Positions 1,019-59,952 of a stretch of 64,000 nucleotides of DNA are shown piece by piece (within the stretch, counting starts at the first letter, position 1; each line of letters begins with the position of its first letter). Source of the DNA: an uncultured Gammaproteobacteria bacterium (GTDB lineage: Bacteria; Pseudomonadota; Gammaproteobacteria; UBA9214); contig CAVQCA010000154.1 in assembly GCA_963710815.1 (NCBI GenBank), positions 8,750 to 72,749 of the forward strand. The letters run 5' to 3'. Under the pieces are notes generated by a model, which saw only the letters and a list, made by a program, of their open reading frames with translations, was not told where the DNA came from and did not search any database. A program made the translations under genes and the position numbers.

Positions 1019-1936
1019 ATGACTGTTATCATGCTACCGCATATGCCAATCGCACGTGCAGCCATTTTTGGACTACTCGTACTCGTCATGTCGAATCAGG
1101 CCCCGGCCGACGTCACGAGTTCCTACCCCTCCCTCTGGCAAAGCACCAATCACAATTTGCAGCGCCAGCTCGACAAGACGCTGACCCGACTCGGCCTCGA
1201 CAAGGCCGTGCACGACAGGAAACTGAGCGTTGCGCTGGTGGATATCACCCGTCTGGACAAACCGCGCGTGGCGTCGGTCAACGGCAATGAAATGCTATAT
1301 GCCGCCAGCCTCCCCAAGATCGCCATCCTGCTGGGTGCGTTTGTGGAGATCGAAGATGGCGAGATGAAGCTGAATCAGGACACCCGCGACTCGCTCACCC
1401 GGATGATCCGGGTATCATCGAATAAAGACGCCACCCGCATGCTGAATCGCGTCGGAAAAAACCGTTTGCTGAGCATACTGCAATCCAGAAAATTTCACCT
1501 TTACGATCCCAGGGTCAACGGCGGTCTCTGGGTCGGGAAGGAGTACGGCAAATCAGCCGCCTATCAGCGTGATCCCCTGCATAATCTCTCTCACGGCGCG
1601 ACCGCCATGCAGACCGCGAGATTCTACTATATGCTGGAAACCGGACGGCTGGTGGGTCCCAGGCTGACACGCGAGATGAAGGACATACTCGGGCACCCCG
1701 GCATCCATCACAAGTTTGTAAAGGGCCTCGCCGATTATCCGGATGTAAAGATCTATCGCAAATCGGGAACCTGGCGAGAATGGCATGCCGACAGCGCCAT
1801 CGTTGAGGCGCAGGGGCACAAATACATTATCGTAGCCCTGGCGGATGATCCCAGAGGCGGCACCTGGCTGAGTCGCCTGATCCAGCCCATACACCAGTTC
1901 ATGGTACCCACCCGGATGGCGAGTTCCACCCACTGA
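1019..1936 (+). CDS. Secreted serine hydrolase, class A beta-lactamase/PBP-like fold
   Basis: Signal-peptide-like N-terminus; SxxK (ASLPK), SxN (VSSN) and KSG (RKSGT) motifs in the expected order. Confidence 0.85.
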   Translation: MTVIMLPHMPIARAAIFGLLVLVMSNQAPADVTSSYPSLWQSTNHNLQRQLDKTLTRLGLDKAVHDRKLSVALVDITRLDKPRVASVNGNEMLYAASLPKIAILLGAFVEIEDGEMKLNQDTRDSLTRMIRVSSNKDATRMLNRVGKNRLLSILQSRKFHLYDPRVNGGLWVGKEYGKSAAYQRDPLHNLSHGATAMQTARFYYMLETGRLVGPRLTREMKDILGHPGIHHKFVKGLADYPDVKIYRKSGTWREWHADSAIVEAQGHKYIIVALADDPRGGTWLSRLIQPIHQFMVPTRMASSTH

Positions 1937-2205
1937 AGTTCCCGAAGCTCCGCCAGCGCCGGACACGGCTCTCCTCACGCGGTTTTCGCCGCCGCACGAT
2001 ACGTACAGGAGTTATGGATATTCATAACCCGTCCTGTGCGGTCTCCCGTTCGCGTGCCCGGAACTTTGCGATGACTATTCCCCCCTGTAAACTCTGCGCT
2101 GGCTATCGCTGCATCGTTGTCTCCCGGTCGCCGGCGGGAGAATCGCCAGTGACGTGGTCGCGAGAGCATCCCGGATGCCCGAGGTTCAGTGTTATGTCGC
2201 CTGTT

Positions 2206-3111
2206 ATGCCTGCCTGCCGCTTTCCTGTCCGCTGCACGGCCTGGAATGATCTCCTTCCCCTGTTCAGCCCGCGGGACAGCGCCAAGAGGTCCCGCGATCG
2301 CCGTTATTGCCTGGCAGCGGCGCTGTTGCTCTGCATCACCCTGGCGGGATGTGCGGAACCGGGAGTGGAACAGAACACGCATGAAATGCTGAACGCCACG
2401 CTCTGGCGGCAAACCTCGGCCGAATACCGGGCCATTGCCGAGCAGACCTATCGTCTGGCGCATGCAAATCTCGATCTGGCGCTGGCGGACCCGGGCTGGA
2501 CCGCCGCCCTGGAGCAGACCGGGGATGCTGCTGGCCTGCCTCCCGCAATCATTGTCGACCTCGACGAGACGATCCTCGATGACACCGGCTATGAAGTCCG
2601 CGTTATCCGGGATCTGGAAAGCTATACGCCGGAGAGTTTTGCCGAGTGGTGCCGTGAGGTGAACGCCCCCGCCATCCCGGGCGCCCGGGAGTTTCTCGAC
2701 TATGCGGATGCTCATGGAGTCACCGTTTTTTACTACAGTGCGCGCAAAGCGGCACTGCGTGAATGCACCACCAGGAACCTGCGGGAACTCCACCTGCCCT
2801 TCCCCGACGACACGCGGCTGTTGCTGACCGATGGAGAAAGCAAGTCGGACCACCGTGCCAGTATTGCCCGACACTATCGTATCCTGCTCCTGGTAGGCGA
2901 TAACCTGGAGGATTTCATGGCCGGTTCCAAAGCCGACCCCTCCGTCCGCCGCACGCAGGCCGGGCGTTACGCGCAGCGCTGGGGCCGTGAATGGATCATT
3001 CTGCCCAATCCCATGTACGGGCAATGGGAAGCCGCAAGCTACGGGTTCGATTCCCGATTGTCGAGACCGGAGCAGTTGAAGCGGAAGCTTCTCATGCTGC
3101 AGGAGCAGTGA
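2206..3111 (+). CDS. Lipoprotein e(P4)-family 5'-nucleotidase / class C acid phosphatase (start uncertain)
   Basis: Lipobox LAGC, HAD motif IIVDLDETILD, LLVGDNLEDF and IILPNPMYGQWE. The ORF is open from 2014; 2206 is the last ATG before the lipobox. Confidence 0.85.
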   Translation: MPACRFPVRCTAWNDLLPLFSPRDSAKRSRDRRYCLAAALLLCITLAGCAEPGVEQNTHEMLNATLWRQTSAEYRAIAEQTYRLAHANLDLALADPGWTAALEQTGDAAGLPPAIIVDLDETILDDTGYEVRVIRDLESYTPESFAEWCREVNAPAIPGAREFLDYADAHGVTVFYYSARKAALRECTTRNLRELHLPFPDDTRLLLTDGESKSDHRASIARHYRILLLVGDNLEDFMAGSKADPSVRRTQAGRYAQRWGREWIILPNPMYGQWEAASYGFDSRLSRPEQLKRKLLMLQEQ

Positions 3112-6927: not shown

Positions 6928-7562
6928 CCGGGGTCGCCGACGACATCCACATCCGGCGGCGGTACGAAGTGGAAAATGCCCTCGCCCACCGGGCCATTGC
7001 GCACCAGTTTGCTGAAGGTGAACGTGGTGCTGTTGCCGAATTTGTCCCTGGCTTCAATGCGCGAGAGCGTGCCTTTCGTAAAGAAGAGGCGGACATCAAC
7101 GACGTTACTGTCATCGTTCTTCGGCGTAAGCAGGACTTCCTGTTCACCGTCGGATGCGGGCTGTGCCTGCATCCGGAAGACCTTTTCAAGCGGCTCATTG
7201 CCGCTCAGCAGCATGGCGGGCGTGGCACTGAACACCTTGTCCATCGGCTGTACGCTGACCTGCGCCAGGTCTTCGTCATAGGACCAGAGGTGCTTTCCAT
7301 CCGCCACAAGCTGCTGTTTATAGGGTGTCCGGTAATTCCAGCGGAATCTTCCCGGCCGCAGGATCCAGACGTGGCCGTCGGACTCCTGTTGCACCTCGCC
7401 TTTGCTGGTGAGGACCTGCTGGTGGAAATCCGCCTCCAGGGTATGCAGGTCCGTGAAGAAGGCATGAACGGTATCCATGGCGCTGCCCGCGAGGACCTGC
7501 GGACTCGCCAGAAGACAAGCCGCGAGCGCGAGAAAACGCGGCAAATGCCACAGTCTGCGCAT
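6924..7562 (-). CDS. lolA: Outer-membrane lipoprotein chaperone LolA
   Basis: Signal peptide, [24 protein letters not shown]-terminal F-x-F-x-PP-x-xDV; sits between ftsK and rarA. Confidence 0.95.
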
Positions 7563-56753: not shown

Positions 56754-57863
56754 ATGAGTTCCACGATACGCATTACCCTCTTCCTGCTGGTGTTTTGCCA
56801 GCTGCCGCAGGTCCAGGGCGCCGATACGGACGGGAGGGAAGTCCCGGACAGCCGCGCCGGCGCGCTGCAAAGCGATGTCGGCGCGGCGCCGGGGTCCGTA
56901 CTGCCGTTGAGCGCGATTGACACGACGGAAATCCCCACGATCAACATTGCCGCCGGGGCATCCGCCGATCAGCCGCTGCCCTTCTACCGCATTGGCGAGA
57001 ACACCTATTTCCTGTATGGCAACATCGCCACGGTCGACGAGAACAATCGCGGCTGGAACGGCAACGCGGGCTTCATCGTCACGTCAGAGGGGGTCATCGT
57101 CATCGACACCCTCGGCACGCCCAGACTCGGGCAGCGCCTGATTGCCACCATCAGGGCGGTGACCGGCCGGCCCATCCGCTATGTCATCATCACCCACAAC
57201 CATCCGGATCACGCCTACGGGTCCGCGGCCTTCCAGGGGATGGAGGGTGTGACGATCATCACCCATAAGGGCTCGCTCGACTATACACAGTCGGATGTCC
57301 TGACACGCTCCGTGGAATACCGCCGCGCGCTGCTCGGCGATGACATGAAAGGCTTCGAGCCCGTCAAGGCCGACCTCTACCTCGACCTTCCGCGTTTCGG
57401 CAGCCACAGGATTGTCCTTGGGAATCAGCTCATCGACATCTATAACACCGGCAGGCATCACTCCTATGGCGATCTGGTCGTGCATCAGGTGAAGGACGGT
57501 ATCCTGTGGATCTCGGACCTGGCGTTCAACCAGCGCACGACCTTCCTCGGTGATGGCGACAGCCGGCAGATCCTGGAAGCCCAGGACTGGCTCATGAACC
57601 GCTTCGGTGATGCGAAGCTGATGGTGCCGGGCCACGGCAGCGCCCAGCGGCCGCCGTTTCCCATGGTGAAAAAGACGCATCGATACGTGGAGCGCCTGCG
57701 CGAGTCCATGCGTGCGGCGGTGGAGAATGACATCCCGCTGATGGATGCCGTCGACCAGGCGGATTTCCCGGACTGGCGCGATACCCGGCTGTACGAATCC
57801 AACCAGCGCGCCAATGCCAATTTCATCTATCGGGAGATGGAGCAGCAATACTTCGCTCAATGA
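56754..57863 (+). CDS. Exported metallo-beta-lactamase-fold hydrolase (SoxH-like)
   Basis: Signal peptide, GNAGFIV, IDTLG, THNHPDH, HSYGD, DLAF, VPGHG. Confidence 0.8.
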   Translation: MSSTIRITLFLLVFCQLPQVQGADTDGREVPDSRAGALQSDVGAAPGSVLPLSAIDTTEIPTINIAAGASADQPLPFYRIGENTYFLYGNIATVDENNRGWNGNAGFIVTSEGVIVIDTLGTPRLGQRLIATIRAVTGRPIRYVIITHNHPDHAYGSAAFQGMEGVTIITHKGSLDYTQSDVLTRSVEYRRALLGDDMKGFEPVKADLYLDLPRFGSHRIVLGNQLIDIYNTGRHHSYGDLVVHQVKDGILWISDLAFNQRTTFLGDGDSRQILEAQDWLMNRFGDAKLMVPGHGSAQRPPFPMVKKTHRYVERLRESMRAAVENDIPLMDAVDQADFPDWRDTRLYESNQRANANFIYREMEQQYFAQ

Positions 57864-58004
57864 ACACCCGGTTGCTGCCGGGTCCGCCGCACGCCCGCGA
57901 ATCGAGGCGGTTCCTGGAACTGCACGGCGGGCACATCCATACCTCCAGGTCAGCCGGGAATCCTGTACACGGGGATCGATGATTTCCCGGAATGGTGCAT
58001 CATG

Positions 58005-58544
58005 TCACACCCTTCGGGCCAAACCAGCCTCCCCTGGCAGGAACAGGCTCTTATGCCCTTTGGGTCTCTCCCCGTTAACCTTCCGTAGTCGATAGGCGAC
58101 ACGGTATTGAATACTGTCGCGTGACGAACGGGGCCCCTTCCATTCACTGCTTGCTGCGCCTCTTTGCGGCATCGGATGGAGCGACGGGTCAGGCGCATGT
58201 TTCGCCAGCATGAATGCACTAATGACAAGTACCAAGGCAGGGACAACGAAGTACCAATACCGAAGGATAACAAGCCCCTTATATACCGGATGAGAGCGGA
58301 TATTCCCCGGGTCCGGCATCGGGATTGTCCCCCTCATCCAGGCCAGTGCGACCGCTGCAGCGAATGCCCCAAGAAAAAATAATCCAAAGGCCAGGAGATA
58401 CAGCGGCATCCCGGAGAAGTATGTTCCAGTTTCCGGATTCCACCGATCGCGCAGGAAAAATGATCCACGCTCAAGCAAATATGCCCCACCCGAAAAGCAG
58501 AAGAATGTGAGGACACCGTTTAACAGGATTCTTATCGTGTTCAT
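58005..58544 (-). CDS. Hypothetical membrane protein, probable integron-cassette gene reading through a decayed attC
   Basis: Three hydrophobic segments; lower GC (25/60 and 28/60 in two hand-counted lines); the tail APDPSLHPMPQRGAA is the typical translation of an attC left arm. Confidence 0.65.
   Translation of the reverse strand: MNTIRILLNGVLTFFCFSGGAYLLERGSFFLRDRWNPETGTYFSGMPLYLLAFGLFFLGAFAAAVALAWMRGTIPMPDPGNIRSHPVYKGLVILRYWYFVVPALVLVISAFMLAKHAPDPSLHPMPQRGAASSEWKGPRSSRDSIQYRVAYRLRKVNGERPKGHKSLFLPGEAGLARRV
58141..58194 (-). mobile_element. Decayed attC-like site (downstream of the cassette ORF)
   Basis: Minus strand GCCTGAC-CCGTC-GCTCCATC-CGATGCCGC-AAA-GAGGC-GCAGCAAGC; R'' has TGAC for TAAC and there is no GTT core. 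Confidence 0.6.
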
Positions 58545-58551
58545 TGCCTGG

Positions 58552-58612
58552 GCATAACATTTGCCTCAAGCGCGCGGCGGAGCCGAATCGAATTGGAGGC
58601 AGTTGCTAGAGT
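58552..58612 (-). mobile_element. attC-like site (upstream of the cassette ORF)
   Basis: Minus strand CTCTAGC-AACTG-CCTC(C)AATT...GGC-TCC-GCC...GCTTGAGG-CAAAT-GTTATGC, with the ATG 7 nt after the core. Confidence 0.65.
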
Positions 58613-58731
58613 CCGTATATCTTGTAAGATCTAAAACCCTTTCAATAAAAACCGCAGGTCGACCGCGCCGGTTAACGAAACGGAAACACCTGCGCAAAGA
58701 CCATGGCGACAAGTAGCCGGCCGGCTGGAAC

Positions 58732-59952
58732 TTACGCCTGCATCACTTCGTCCAGCAGTTCGATCCAGTGCTTCACCGGCACCCCGCTGGCTGTTGCCAG
58801 ATGCAGCTGGCAACCGACATTGGCGGTCGCTATGACATCGGGCATACCCTGTTGCAACGCGGCGAGCTTGTTGTCCAGCAGTCGTCGTGACAGGTCCGGC
58901 TGCAGAATCGAATACGTGCCGGCCGAACCGCAGCACAGGTGCGCGTCGGTCACGTGAGTCAGCTGAAAACCCGCCTGCTGCAGCACGGTCTCGACCACGC
59001 CCTGCAGTTGCTGGCCGTGCTGCAGGGTGCAGGGACTGTGGAACGCCACCTTGCATTGTGCCGCATGCGCTGTGAGCCGCGGCAGCGATTCGGCCTCAAT
59101 AACTTCAACGATATCTCTGGCCAGCGCGCTGACGCGTGCGGCCTTTTTCTCATAGGCCGCGTCCTGTCGCAGCAACTCGCCGTACTCCTTCACCAGTGCA
59201 CCGCAGCCGCTGGCGGTAACGACAATCGCCTCCACACCCTGTTCGATGTACGGCCACCAGGCGTCTATGTTGCGGCGCATGAAGTCGAGACCTTCGCGCT
59301 GCGCCGCCAGATGGTGACTCACCGCACCGCAGCAACCGGCCTCCGGTGCCTCGACCAGCTGGATCCCCAGCCGATCGAGCACCCGTGCGGCAGCGGCATT
59401 GGTAGCGGGCGTGGCGACGCTCTGCACGCAACCCGCCAGCGCGATCATACGGCGCGGCTGCGCGCGTACGGGCCAGGCCCCGGGGGTCTGAAACGCGGGG
59501 ATCCTGGTGCGCAACGCGGCCGGCAACAGCGGTCGCAGACGCTGGCCAAGACGCAACCAGGGTGCGAAGCGACGCGGATGGGGTAGCAGCTTGCGCAAGG
59601 CATAGCGCATTGCGGCTTCCAACCGACCGCGCCGCAGCTTGCGCTCGGCGATTTCACGACCGATATCCACCAACCTGCCGTAACGTACGCCGGACGGGCA
59701 GGTTGTCTCGCAGGACCTGCAGGTCAGGCAGCGATCCAGGTGCAGGCGGGTTTTTTCACTGACCGCCTCGCCTTCCAGCATCTGCTTGATGAGGTAGATG
59801 CGCCCGCGCGGGCCATCCAGTTCGTTGCCGAGCAACTGGTAGGTCGGACACGTGGCAGTGCAGAAACCGCAGTGTACGCAGGCGCGCAGAATGCTGTCGG
59901 CTTCTCTGCCTTCCGGGGTATTGCTGAATTCGTCGCTCAGGCGGGTCTGCAT
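58732..59952 (-). CDS. glcF: Glycolate oxidase iron-sulfur subunit
   Basis: CVHCGFCTATCP, DGPRGRI, CLTCRSCETTCPSGV, two CCG domains, ANVGC; start MQTRL at 59952. Confidence 0.96.
   Translation of the reverse strand: MQTRLSDEFSNTPEGREADSILRACVHCGFCTATCPTYQLLGNELDGPRGRIYLIKQMLEGEAVSEKTRLHLDRCLTCRSCETTCPSGVRYGRLVDIGREIAERKLRRGRLEAAMRYALRKLLPHPRRFAPWLRLGQRLRPLLPAALRTRIPAFQTPGAWPVRAQPRRMIALAGCVQSVATPATNAAAARVLDRLGIQLVEAPEAGCCGAVSHHLAAQREGLDFMRRNIDAWWPYIEQGVEAIVVTASGCGALVKEYGELLRQDAAYEKKAARVSALARDIVEVIEAESLPRLTAHAAQCKVAFHSPCTLQHGQQLQGVVETVLQQAGFQLTHVTDAHLCCGSAGTYSILQPDLSRRLLDNKLAALQQGMPDVIATANVGCQLHLATASGVPVKHWIELLDEVMQA

Follow-up and report, generated by a model that had tools for sequence, protein, structure and literature searches.

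A small membrane-protein gene lies behind the glycolate oxidase genes glcDEF in the DNA analysed here, a stretch of 64,000 nucleotides that we refer to as the window, and its surroundings raise the question of whether it is an integron cassette left in a chromosome without an integrase. The original prediction was of exactly such an orphan cassette, stranded downstream of glcDEF, and the attC models, the homologues in cassette arrays and the lack of an IntI match in the window all speak for it. We conclude that the segment is very probably a fossil fragment of a cassette array, made up of one cassette together with most of the attC site of the preceding cassette, in a hypervariable spot between glcF and a convergent gene of the metallo-beta-lactamase fold (MBL). 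Comparison of GlcF places the organism, a gammaproteobacterium from salt-marsh sediment, near Thiogranum/Thiohalophilus, and DNA of the window is found in salt-marsh metagenomes. The features discussed below are collected in Table 1.

Table 1. Features between glcF and the MBL gene, in window coordinates.
Feature	Position	Strand	Remark
glcF, glycolate oxidase iron-sulfur subunit, last gene of glcDEF	58732..59952	-	context
MBL gene, convergent	56754..57863	+	context; the edge of the variable segment falls at its final codons
Terminator-like hairpin CGCGGTCGACCTGCG with T-run	58643..58667	-	3' of glcF, upstream of the cassette fragment
Upstream attC site, 60 nt	58552..58611	-	would belong to the preceding cassette of an array
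R' box of the upstream attC, GTTATGC	58552..58558	-	GTTRRRY with one mismatch; the cassette proper begins past the G
R'' position of the upstream attC, CTCTAGC	58605..58611	-	AGC where AAC is invariant; probable junction of chromosome and cassette DNA
Cassette ORF, 179 aa	58005..58544	-	small membrane protein core (three predicted helices) and read-through tail
The cassette's own attC, decayed	58135..58194	-	R'' GCCTGAC; 58194-58153 kept (42 nt), 58152-58135 unrecognisable (18 nt)
AAG (Lys136) where the gene family has its attC-embedded TAG stop	58137..58139	-	from in-register alignment
Read-through tail, codons 137-179 and stop	58005..58136	-	homologues in near-identical strains only
Strain-variable segment	57857..58642		attC, cassette ORF and 150 nt of further DNA; relatives L028 and L035 differ here

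The case for an attC site ahead of the gene comes from two covariance models built from integron array sites, with every site adjoining this gene family left out. Model R1 was made from 6 attC sites of two integrons with intI, and model R2 from 10 attC sites on four contigs, the most similar training site also being left out. Both single out 58552-58611 on the minus strand as the top match in the window, R1 on both strands at 27.4 bits (E ~1e-4; runner-up 17.1 bits) and R2 at 21.9 bits (E ~0.005; runner-up 12.1 bits), these being home-made models with training sites from one environment and rough E-values, which differ from the model of IntegronFinder itself. Array attC sites outside the training sets score 14-33 bits, a range that includes the upstream site. 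The same site is homologous over ~55 nt to positions 5945-5992 of contig L013, the attC preceding a truncated copy of the cassette gene there, and is 74% identical over its whole length to an unrelated attC of that contig (4108-4178). The second-best R1 match, at 7138-7191 on the minus strand (17.1 bits, E 0.07; 10.4 bits with R2), was set aside; it is G+C-rich, has no AAC or GTT boxes and is probably a chance hairpin or a terminator. Folding energy was discarded as uninformative for recognising the hairpins (z = +0.15 and -0.95).

The R''-L''-L'-R' architecture that these home-made models recognise agrees with the ~60-nt spacing originally described, ending in GTTATGC, and in the model alignments both this R' box and the L-stem are intact. 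What did not hold is the left R'' box, which is damaged: the site keeps GTT but has AGC in place of AAC, and the R1 and R2 alignments both put non-standard pairs at this position. Related sites show other states of the same boxes. The attC upstream of the gene in L031 (2409-2471) has R'' GCATAGC and R' GCTAGAC, so that a paired change of AAC to AGC and of GTT to GCT keeps the R boxes pairing; L029 (3848-3910) combines GCCTAAC with GCTAGAC; and the upstream site of the window has the AGC of L031 in R'' but a normal GTT.

Metagenome data help to place the left end of the cassette DNA. In four salt-marsh metagenomes the attC core (58563-58600) occurs at 3-5 times the depth of its flanks, joined to many different R' and R'' ends, and loose ends at 58600 lead into contigs in which the same core carries an intact GCATAAC, the exact complement of GTTATGC. 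A 52-nt stretch on the other side (58606-58657) recurs in other contigs next to sequence that is not attC-like. The junction of host and cassette DNA is probably at 58605/58606, inside R'', a tentative placement drawn from 30-letter loose ends on short metagenome contigs at ~87% identity. Its position next to the AA/C point might record a non-canonical integrase event, on the top strand or the R'' side.

On the gene's side of the site, GTTATGC is followed by 7 nt (ccaggca) and then by the ATG at 58544 on the minus strand, just as had been described; the other features listed at the outset are likewise present where they had been placed. The translation of the ORF contains APDPSLHPMPQRGAASSEWKG. 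The description of a lower-GC ORF is likewise borne out, with a G+C content of 0.49-0.55 across 58100-58800 (ORF and leader) against 0.60-0.73 in the flanks. Between the glcF hairpin and the upstream attC lie 31 A+T-rich bases. A tblastn search with IntI1 and the IntI fragment of L013 recovered IntI in L009, L010 and L013 but no homologue in the 64-kb window at E <= 1e-3, leaving an integrase-free stretch of 5.4 kb on one side and 58 kb on the other, to the window ends; the DNA from the upstream site to the window end contains glcDEF and a kinase gene, with no intI.

Judged from where its members lie, the gene family is cassette-borne. A truncated copy of the cassette gene forms one cassette of a complete integron on contig L013, where an N-terminal fragment of IntI (TIGR02249, E 1e-38) accompanies an array of at least 9 cassettes on the other strand, with GNAT, HicA, BrnT/BrnA, DUF4160, ankyrin, PNPOx and MEKHLA genes, most of them followed by a model-detected attC. 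On L009 and L010, whose sequence is the same as that of L005, an Ectothiorhodospiraceae metagenome-assembled genome (MAG), a full-length copy is preceded at a distance of 2.1 kb by an IntI homologue with 49% identity to IntI1 across 285 aa, and on L029-L032 the gene is flanked by attC sites, with neighbouring cassettes that vary among the contigs. The homologues thus sit where a cassette origin would have them, in arrays beside integron integrase genes. In addition, homology between copies (L008, L009, L004 and L011) begins at or just past GTTRRRY (58544-58553), and in L008, L009, L004 and L013 a GTTRRRY precedes the ATG by 8-19 nt, with unrelated DNA further upstream in L008, L009 and L004. 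Such an onset of homology, for a start codon shortly after GTTRRRY in the same orientation, is what a cassette boundary would produce.

The copy at 6001-6230 of L013, found also in L014 and L015, is cut after ~70 codons, its homology ending at caccaac/GTTAGGG, where a MEKHLA-domain cassette starts; this looks like an internal deletion or secondary-site recombination within the array. At ~1570-3010 of the same contig an IS110-family transposase gene (Pfam DEDD_Tnp_IS110 and Transposase_20) is inserted within an attC, in the manner of the IS1111-attC elements, a group with attC sites as targets. In L009 (2628-3847, minus strand) and L010 (543-1762, minus strand) the match to IntI1 breaks at residue 300 and resumes ~276 nt on, before the region of the catalytic tyrosine, and this integrase is probably a pseudogene or carries an insertion. 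In L001 (8473-10399, equal to L016) the gene follows three small genes on the same strand (a 98-aa gene, GNAT and DinB), with an AI-2E transporter gene on one side of the group and an ATP synthase operon on the other. The models detect no attC at this copy, whose 3' end reads PNPALRAPPQRPAAQQPR before the stop, with GGTAGCC replacing GTTAGGC, and it may represent an older, fully fossilised array that has kept its stop codon.

Homology is what identifies the cassette's own attC, which has no R1 score and an R2 score of 9.2 bits that is not significant (E 5.8). In an alignment with 9 homologues its left 42 nt match the attC consensus of the family at 36 positions, and its right 18 nt at 6 (P = 0.47); BLAST homology to every relative ends at 58153-58163. 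The site at the 3' end of the ORF is accordingly incomplete in the way first described, with left arm and apex kept and the right end lost, and the ORF runs on to 58005. Its R'' has GAC for AAC, and GGAAGGG stands where R' would be. A right arm mutated point by point in register was dropped as an explanation, 6 matches in 18 being chance, and among loose ends near 58153 a search for the intact right arm turned up nothing but the L008-type variant. An intact 60-nt counterpart exists at 4269-4328 of L029, reading GCCCAAC, 46 nt and GTTAGGA, with a TAG stop within the R' box; it is a weak match to the model (14.5 bits, E 0.27).

The loss of this right arm has a consequence for the protein. In the gene family the stop codon sits inside the R' box (cGT TAG g), and the consensus of ten family 3' ends, GCCTAACCCGTCGCTCCAGCCGACGCCGCAAAGCGGCGCGGCTGAGCTTTATCGGTAGGA, translates into PNPSLQPTPQSGAAELYR followed by the stop, almost exactly the peptide given in the original prediction for cassettes that read their attC as a C-terminus. 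Copies L029, L009, L001, L018 and L033 stop at the TAG position; the window has AAG there in the alignment, and its ORF therefore continues for 44 codons into unrelated DNA. At least 5 copies (the window, L008, L011, L006 and L007) have lost the TAG of R' and gained unrelated extensions of ~10-50 residues, those of L008, L011, L006 and L007 being unrelated to the tail in the window, and in L001 and L009 the GTT is mutated and the TAG kept. The window offers a concrete case in which an attC-embedded stop codon was lost upon decay of the site. Because the recombination site includes the stop codon, one possibility is that attC decay in stranded cassettes of this family repeatedly opens new C-terminal coding sequence, although we regard this as doubtful. 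If general, erosion of attC sites would systematically generate new protein tails, and it would serve as a molecular clock of cassette immobilisation.

How the protein itself has fared can be read from its relatives. A search of 5.8 billion proteins returned 23, none with a name and mostly of 120-150 aa. Only P0001 (98% identical) has the length and tail of the window ORF; most others end ~40 residues sooner, many with tails such as PNPSFHPVLQNNAVQLKR or PNPALDPTQQNGAADINR before the stop; these tails are translations of the 60-nt attC. Among species-representative genomes the family occurs at 3 loci, none in the window's own species. The protein has no match in Pfam, NCBIfam or PADLOC. AlphaFold gives the core (residues 1-118) three long helices with one short hairpin, at pLDDT 80-97, a model for which Foldseek found nothing below E 0.7 in the PDB. 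For the core, every pairwise dN/dS value, also when the window copy is one of the pair, falls within 0.11-0.25, which indicates a core under purifying selection now or until recently. Relaxed selection on the window's own core was considered and rejected: its branch carries 15 synonymous and 9 non-synonymous changes, like its sister branches. The core gene is probably still functional, since no relaxation of constraint is visible. As to the tail, the suggestion that a new C-terminus is being domesticated found no support. It is strain-specific and modelled at pLDDT 37-55, and near-identical strains differ in it by P138T, D143V, R152Q and R177L against one synonymous change. The new C-terminus bears no sign of selection, and we infer that it is an accidental by-product. 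Taken together with the model scores of the upstream site, the failure of homologues to conserve this tail favours the original prediction; neither of the outcomes named in advance as speaking against it was obtained.

Close relatives carry other DNA at this spot. L028, which matches the window at 95.5% identity across 2176 nt of glcEF and at 97.7% in the end of the MBL gene, has an unrelated insert of 396 nt (2177-2572) with a gene for an 83-aa glycine-rich membrane protein in place of 57857-58642. It shares the glcF hairpin region up to ~58643, which is therefore native to the 3' end of glcF. L035, 97.5% identical in glcEF, diverges from 58673 and has a cold-shock-domain-like gene there (1545-1757). 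The expected absence of the cassette from relatives is thus seen in both. It is absent as well from more distant relatives (77-85% GlcF identity), which have other genes after glcF and have lost the downstream synteny, so that they provide no clean empty site; L034 ends 30 nt past glcF. On this comparison the spot is hypervariable: three strains with 95.5-97.5% glcEF identity carry three unrelated small genes, so that at least three alleles exist, among them the cassette fragment. These alleles mark the DNA immediately 3' of glcF as a hotspot at which this lineage swaps genes. A 47-nt stretch that separates the ORF from the MBL gene in part (57888-57934, plus strand) is up to 10 times deeper in other metagenome contigs. 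Elsewhere it is part of an open frame, PYAEGEQLFAHARESRRFLELHGGHGNGW, which by eye resembles the end of a hydrolase gene, and here it is probably a scrap of another gene from earlier rearrangements.

The layout suggests how the segment may have come to lie where it does. A piece of an array, extending from the R'' of one attC into the middle of the following one, would have been captured at the recombination-prone spot. We infer that it arrived by illegitimate recombination or by exchange through flanking homology; alternatively, an integrase may have brought in a larger insertion that deletions then trimmed. The main competing account follows the SALIN route of Loot et al. (bioRxiv 10.1101/2022.09.11.507474): free cassette DNA would have been inserted recently into a genomic secondary site (attC x attG) through an integrase whose gene lies in another part of the genome, and would then have decayed by mutation. 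The locus fits the definition of a SALIN, a lone attC that has no integrase near it, the left junction falls within R'' next to the AA/C position, and intact copies of this attC family are numerous in the community. By our own reasoning from the integrase cut positions, which we did not find stated in that preprint, such an insertion should leave TTRRRY alone before the gene and a complete attC behind it. The window has the opposite layout, with a nearly complete attC in front that differs from the gene's own and a broken site behind, and the account would need a multi-cassette circle and later deletions. We therefore consider it unlikely, and capture of an array piece appears the more economical reading.

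Less probable still, and in our judgement very improbable, is a live mini-array at this locus, with an upstream attC that still works and an integrase acting in trans that could load or unload it. The 27.4 bits do fall among the scores of non-training sites in real arrays (20-33 bits), and R' and the L-stem are sound, but AGC in R'' would create an A-C mismatch next to the bottom-strand cleavage point, outer positions of the R boxes are unpaired, the second partner site has no R' and the window has no integrase. The fragment would no longer be excisable, because one of its partner sites lacks R', where the integrase cuts, and in the other the A-C mismatch adjoins the cleavage point of the bottom strand, the strand that recombines. 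That the gene is an ordinary chromosomal one and its attC features are chance hairpins, or a glcF terminator or REP element, is hardly credible: the folding energy of the 81-nt stretch is no better than that of shuffles (z = +0.15 and +0.41 for the two strands) and some MAGs have chromosomal copies with no detectable attC (L001, L006 and L033), but two covariance models single out the upstream site, that site is homologous to attC sites in arrays with intI, the 3' ends of the family align, with the stop codon in register, to an attC consensus of 60 nt, and the gene is absent at the locus in 95-97% identical relatives.

As the original prediction had it, the ORF appears promoterless, with no sigma-70-like promoter predicted between glcF and its ATG. 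In two metatranscriptomes, contigs with glcF and the MBL gene are 90-97% alike to the window, probably from relatives that perhaps do not have the cassette, and nothing covers 57871-58720. Read-through expression of the cassette ORF is not supported: a terminator-like hairpin with its T-run stands between glcF and the cassette, and in these two metatranscriptomes no RNA lies over the cassette. Any expression would depend on leakage through the glcF terminator or on an unrecognised promoter.

Set against the known classes, the locus is not a complete integron, which would have intI, attI and Pc within ~4 kb of an attC. Nor is it a CALIN (at least 2 clustered attC, no integrase), one site being significant and the second a remnant recognised by homology. 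Of the two labels proposed at the outset, CALIN-like and SALIN-like, only the latter stands, since one site is model-detectable: a single attC, no integrase and an associated coding sequence (CDS), with the difference that the site is 5' of the CDS. We regard the locus, by its sequence features, as a well-supported SALIN-like cassette fossil, of a class already common in genomes; Loot et al. (bioRxiv 10.1101/2022.09.11.507474) count 3400 SALINs in 21,105 complete genomes and describe attC x attG insertion into genomic secondary sites as a route to them. Isolated attC sites being common, the case does not change what is known of integrons. It does document an end state of an integron cassette, in which a mobile cassette becomes a fixed chromosomal gene, and it shows one gene in four states: in an array with an integrase, in an array whose contig has none, by itself next to a point-mutated site, and, in the window, by itself with one site spoiled and the other half erased.

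The comparison with SALINs and CALINs is close in that all have a cassette-type gene, a recognisable attC and a chromosomal position with no integrase in reach. The locus differs in the order of its parts, the detectable attC standing before the gene and not after it, and in having lost much of the gene's own attC; this layout fits an array fragment better than the single attC x attG insertion of a SALIN. As far as the account in 10.1101/2022.09.11.507474 goes, the aadB cassette at secondary sites in RSF1010 and pRAY, where a nearby promoter expresses it, is alike in standing alone outside any integron and relying on transcription signals of its host; the cassette in the window is damaged and has a terminator-like hairpin upstream, and its expression is putative. 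With the cassettes of sedentary chromosomal integrons (L013, L009/L010 and L029-L032) it shares the gene family, the attC family of ~60 nt, a start 7-19 nt past GTTRRRY and an attC that supplies the final 18 codons, the stop falling in R'. Unlike them, the copy in the window has no intI, attI or neighbouring cassettes, and it lies between housekeeping-type genes with both of its sites damaged.
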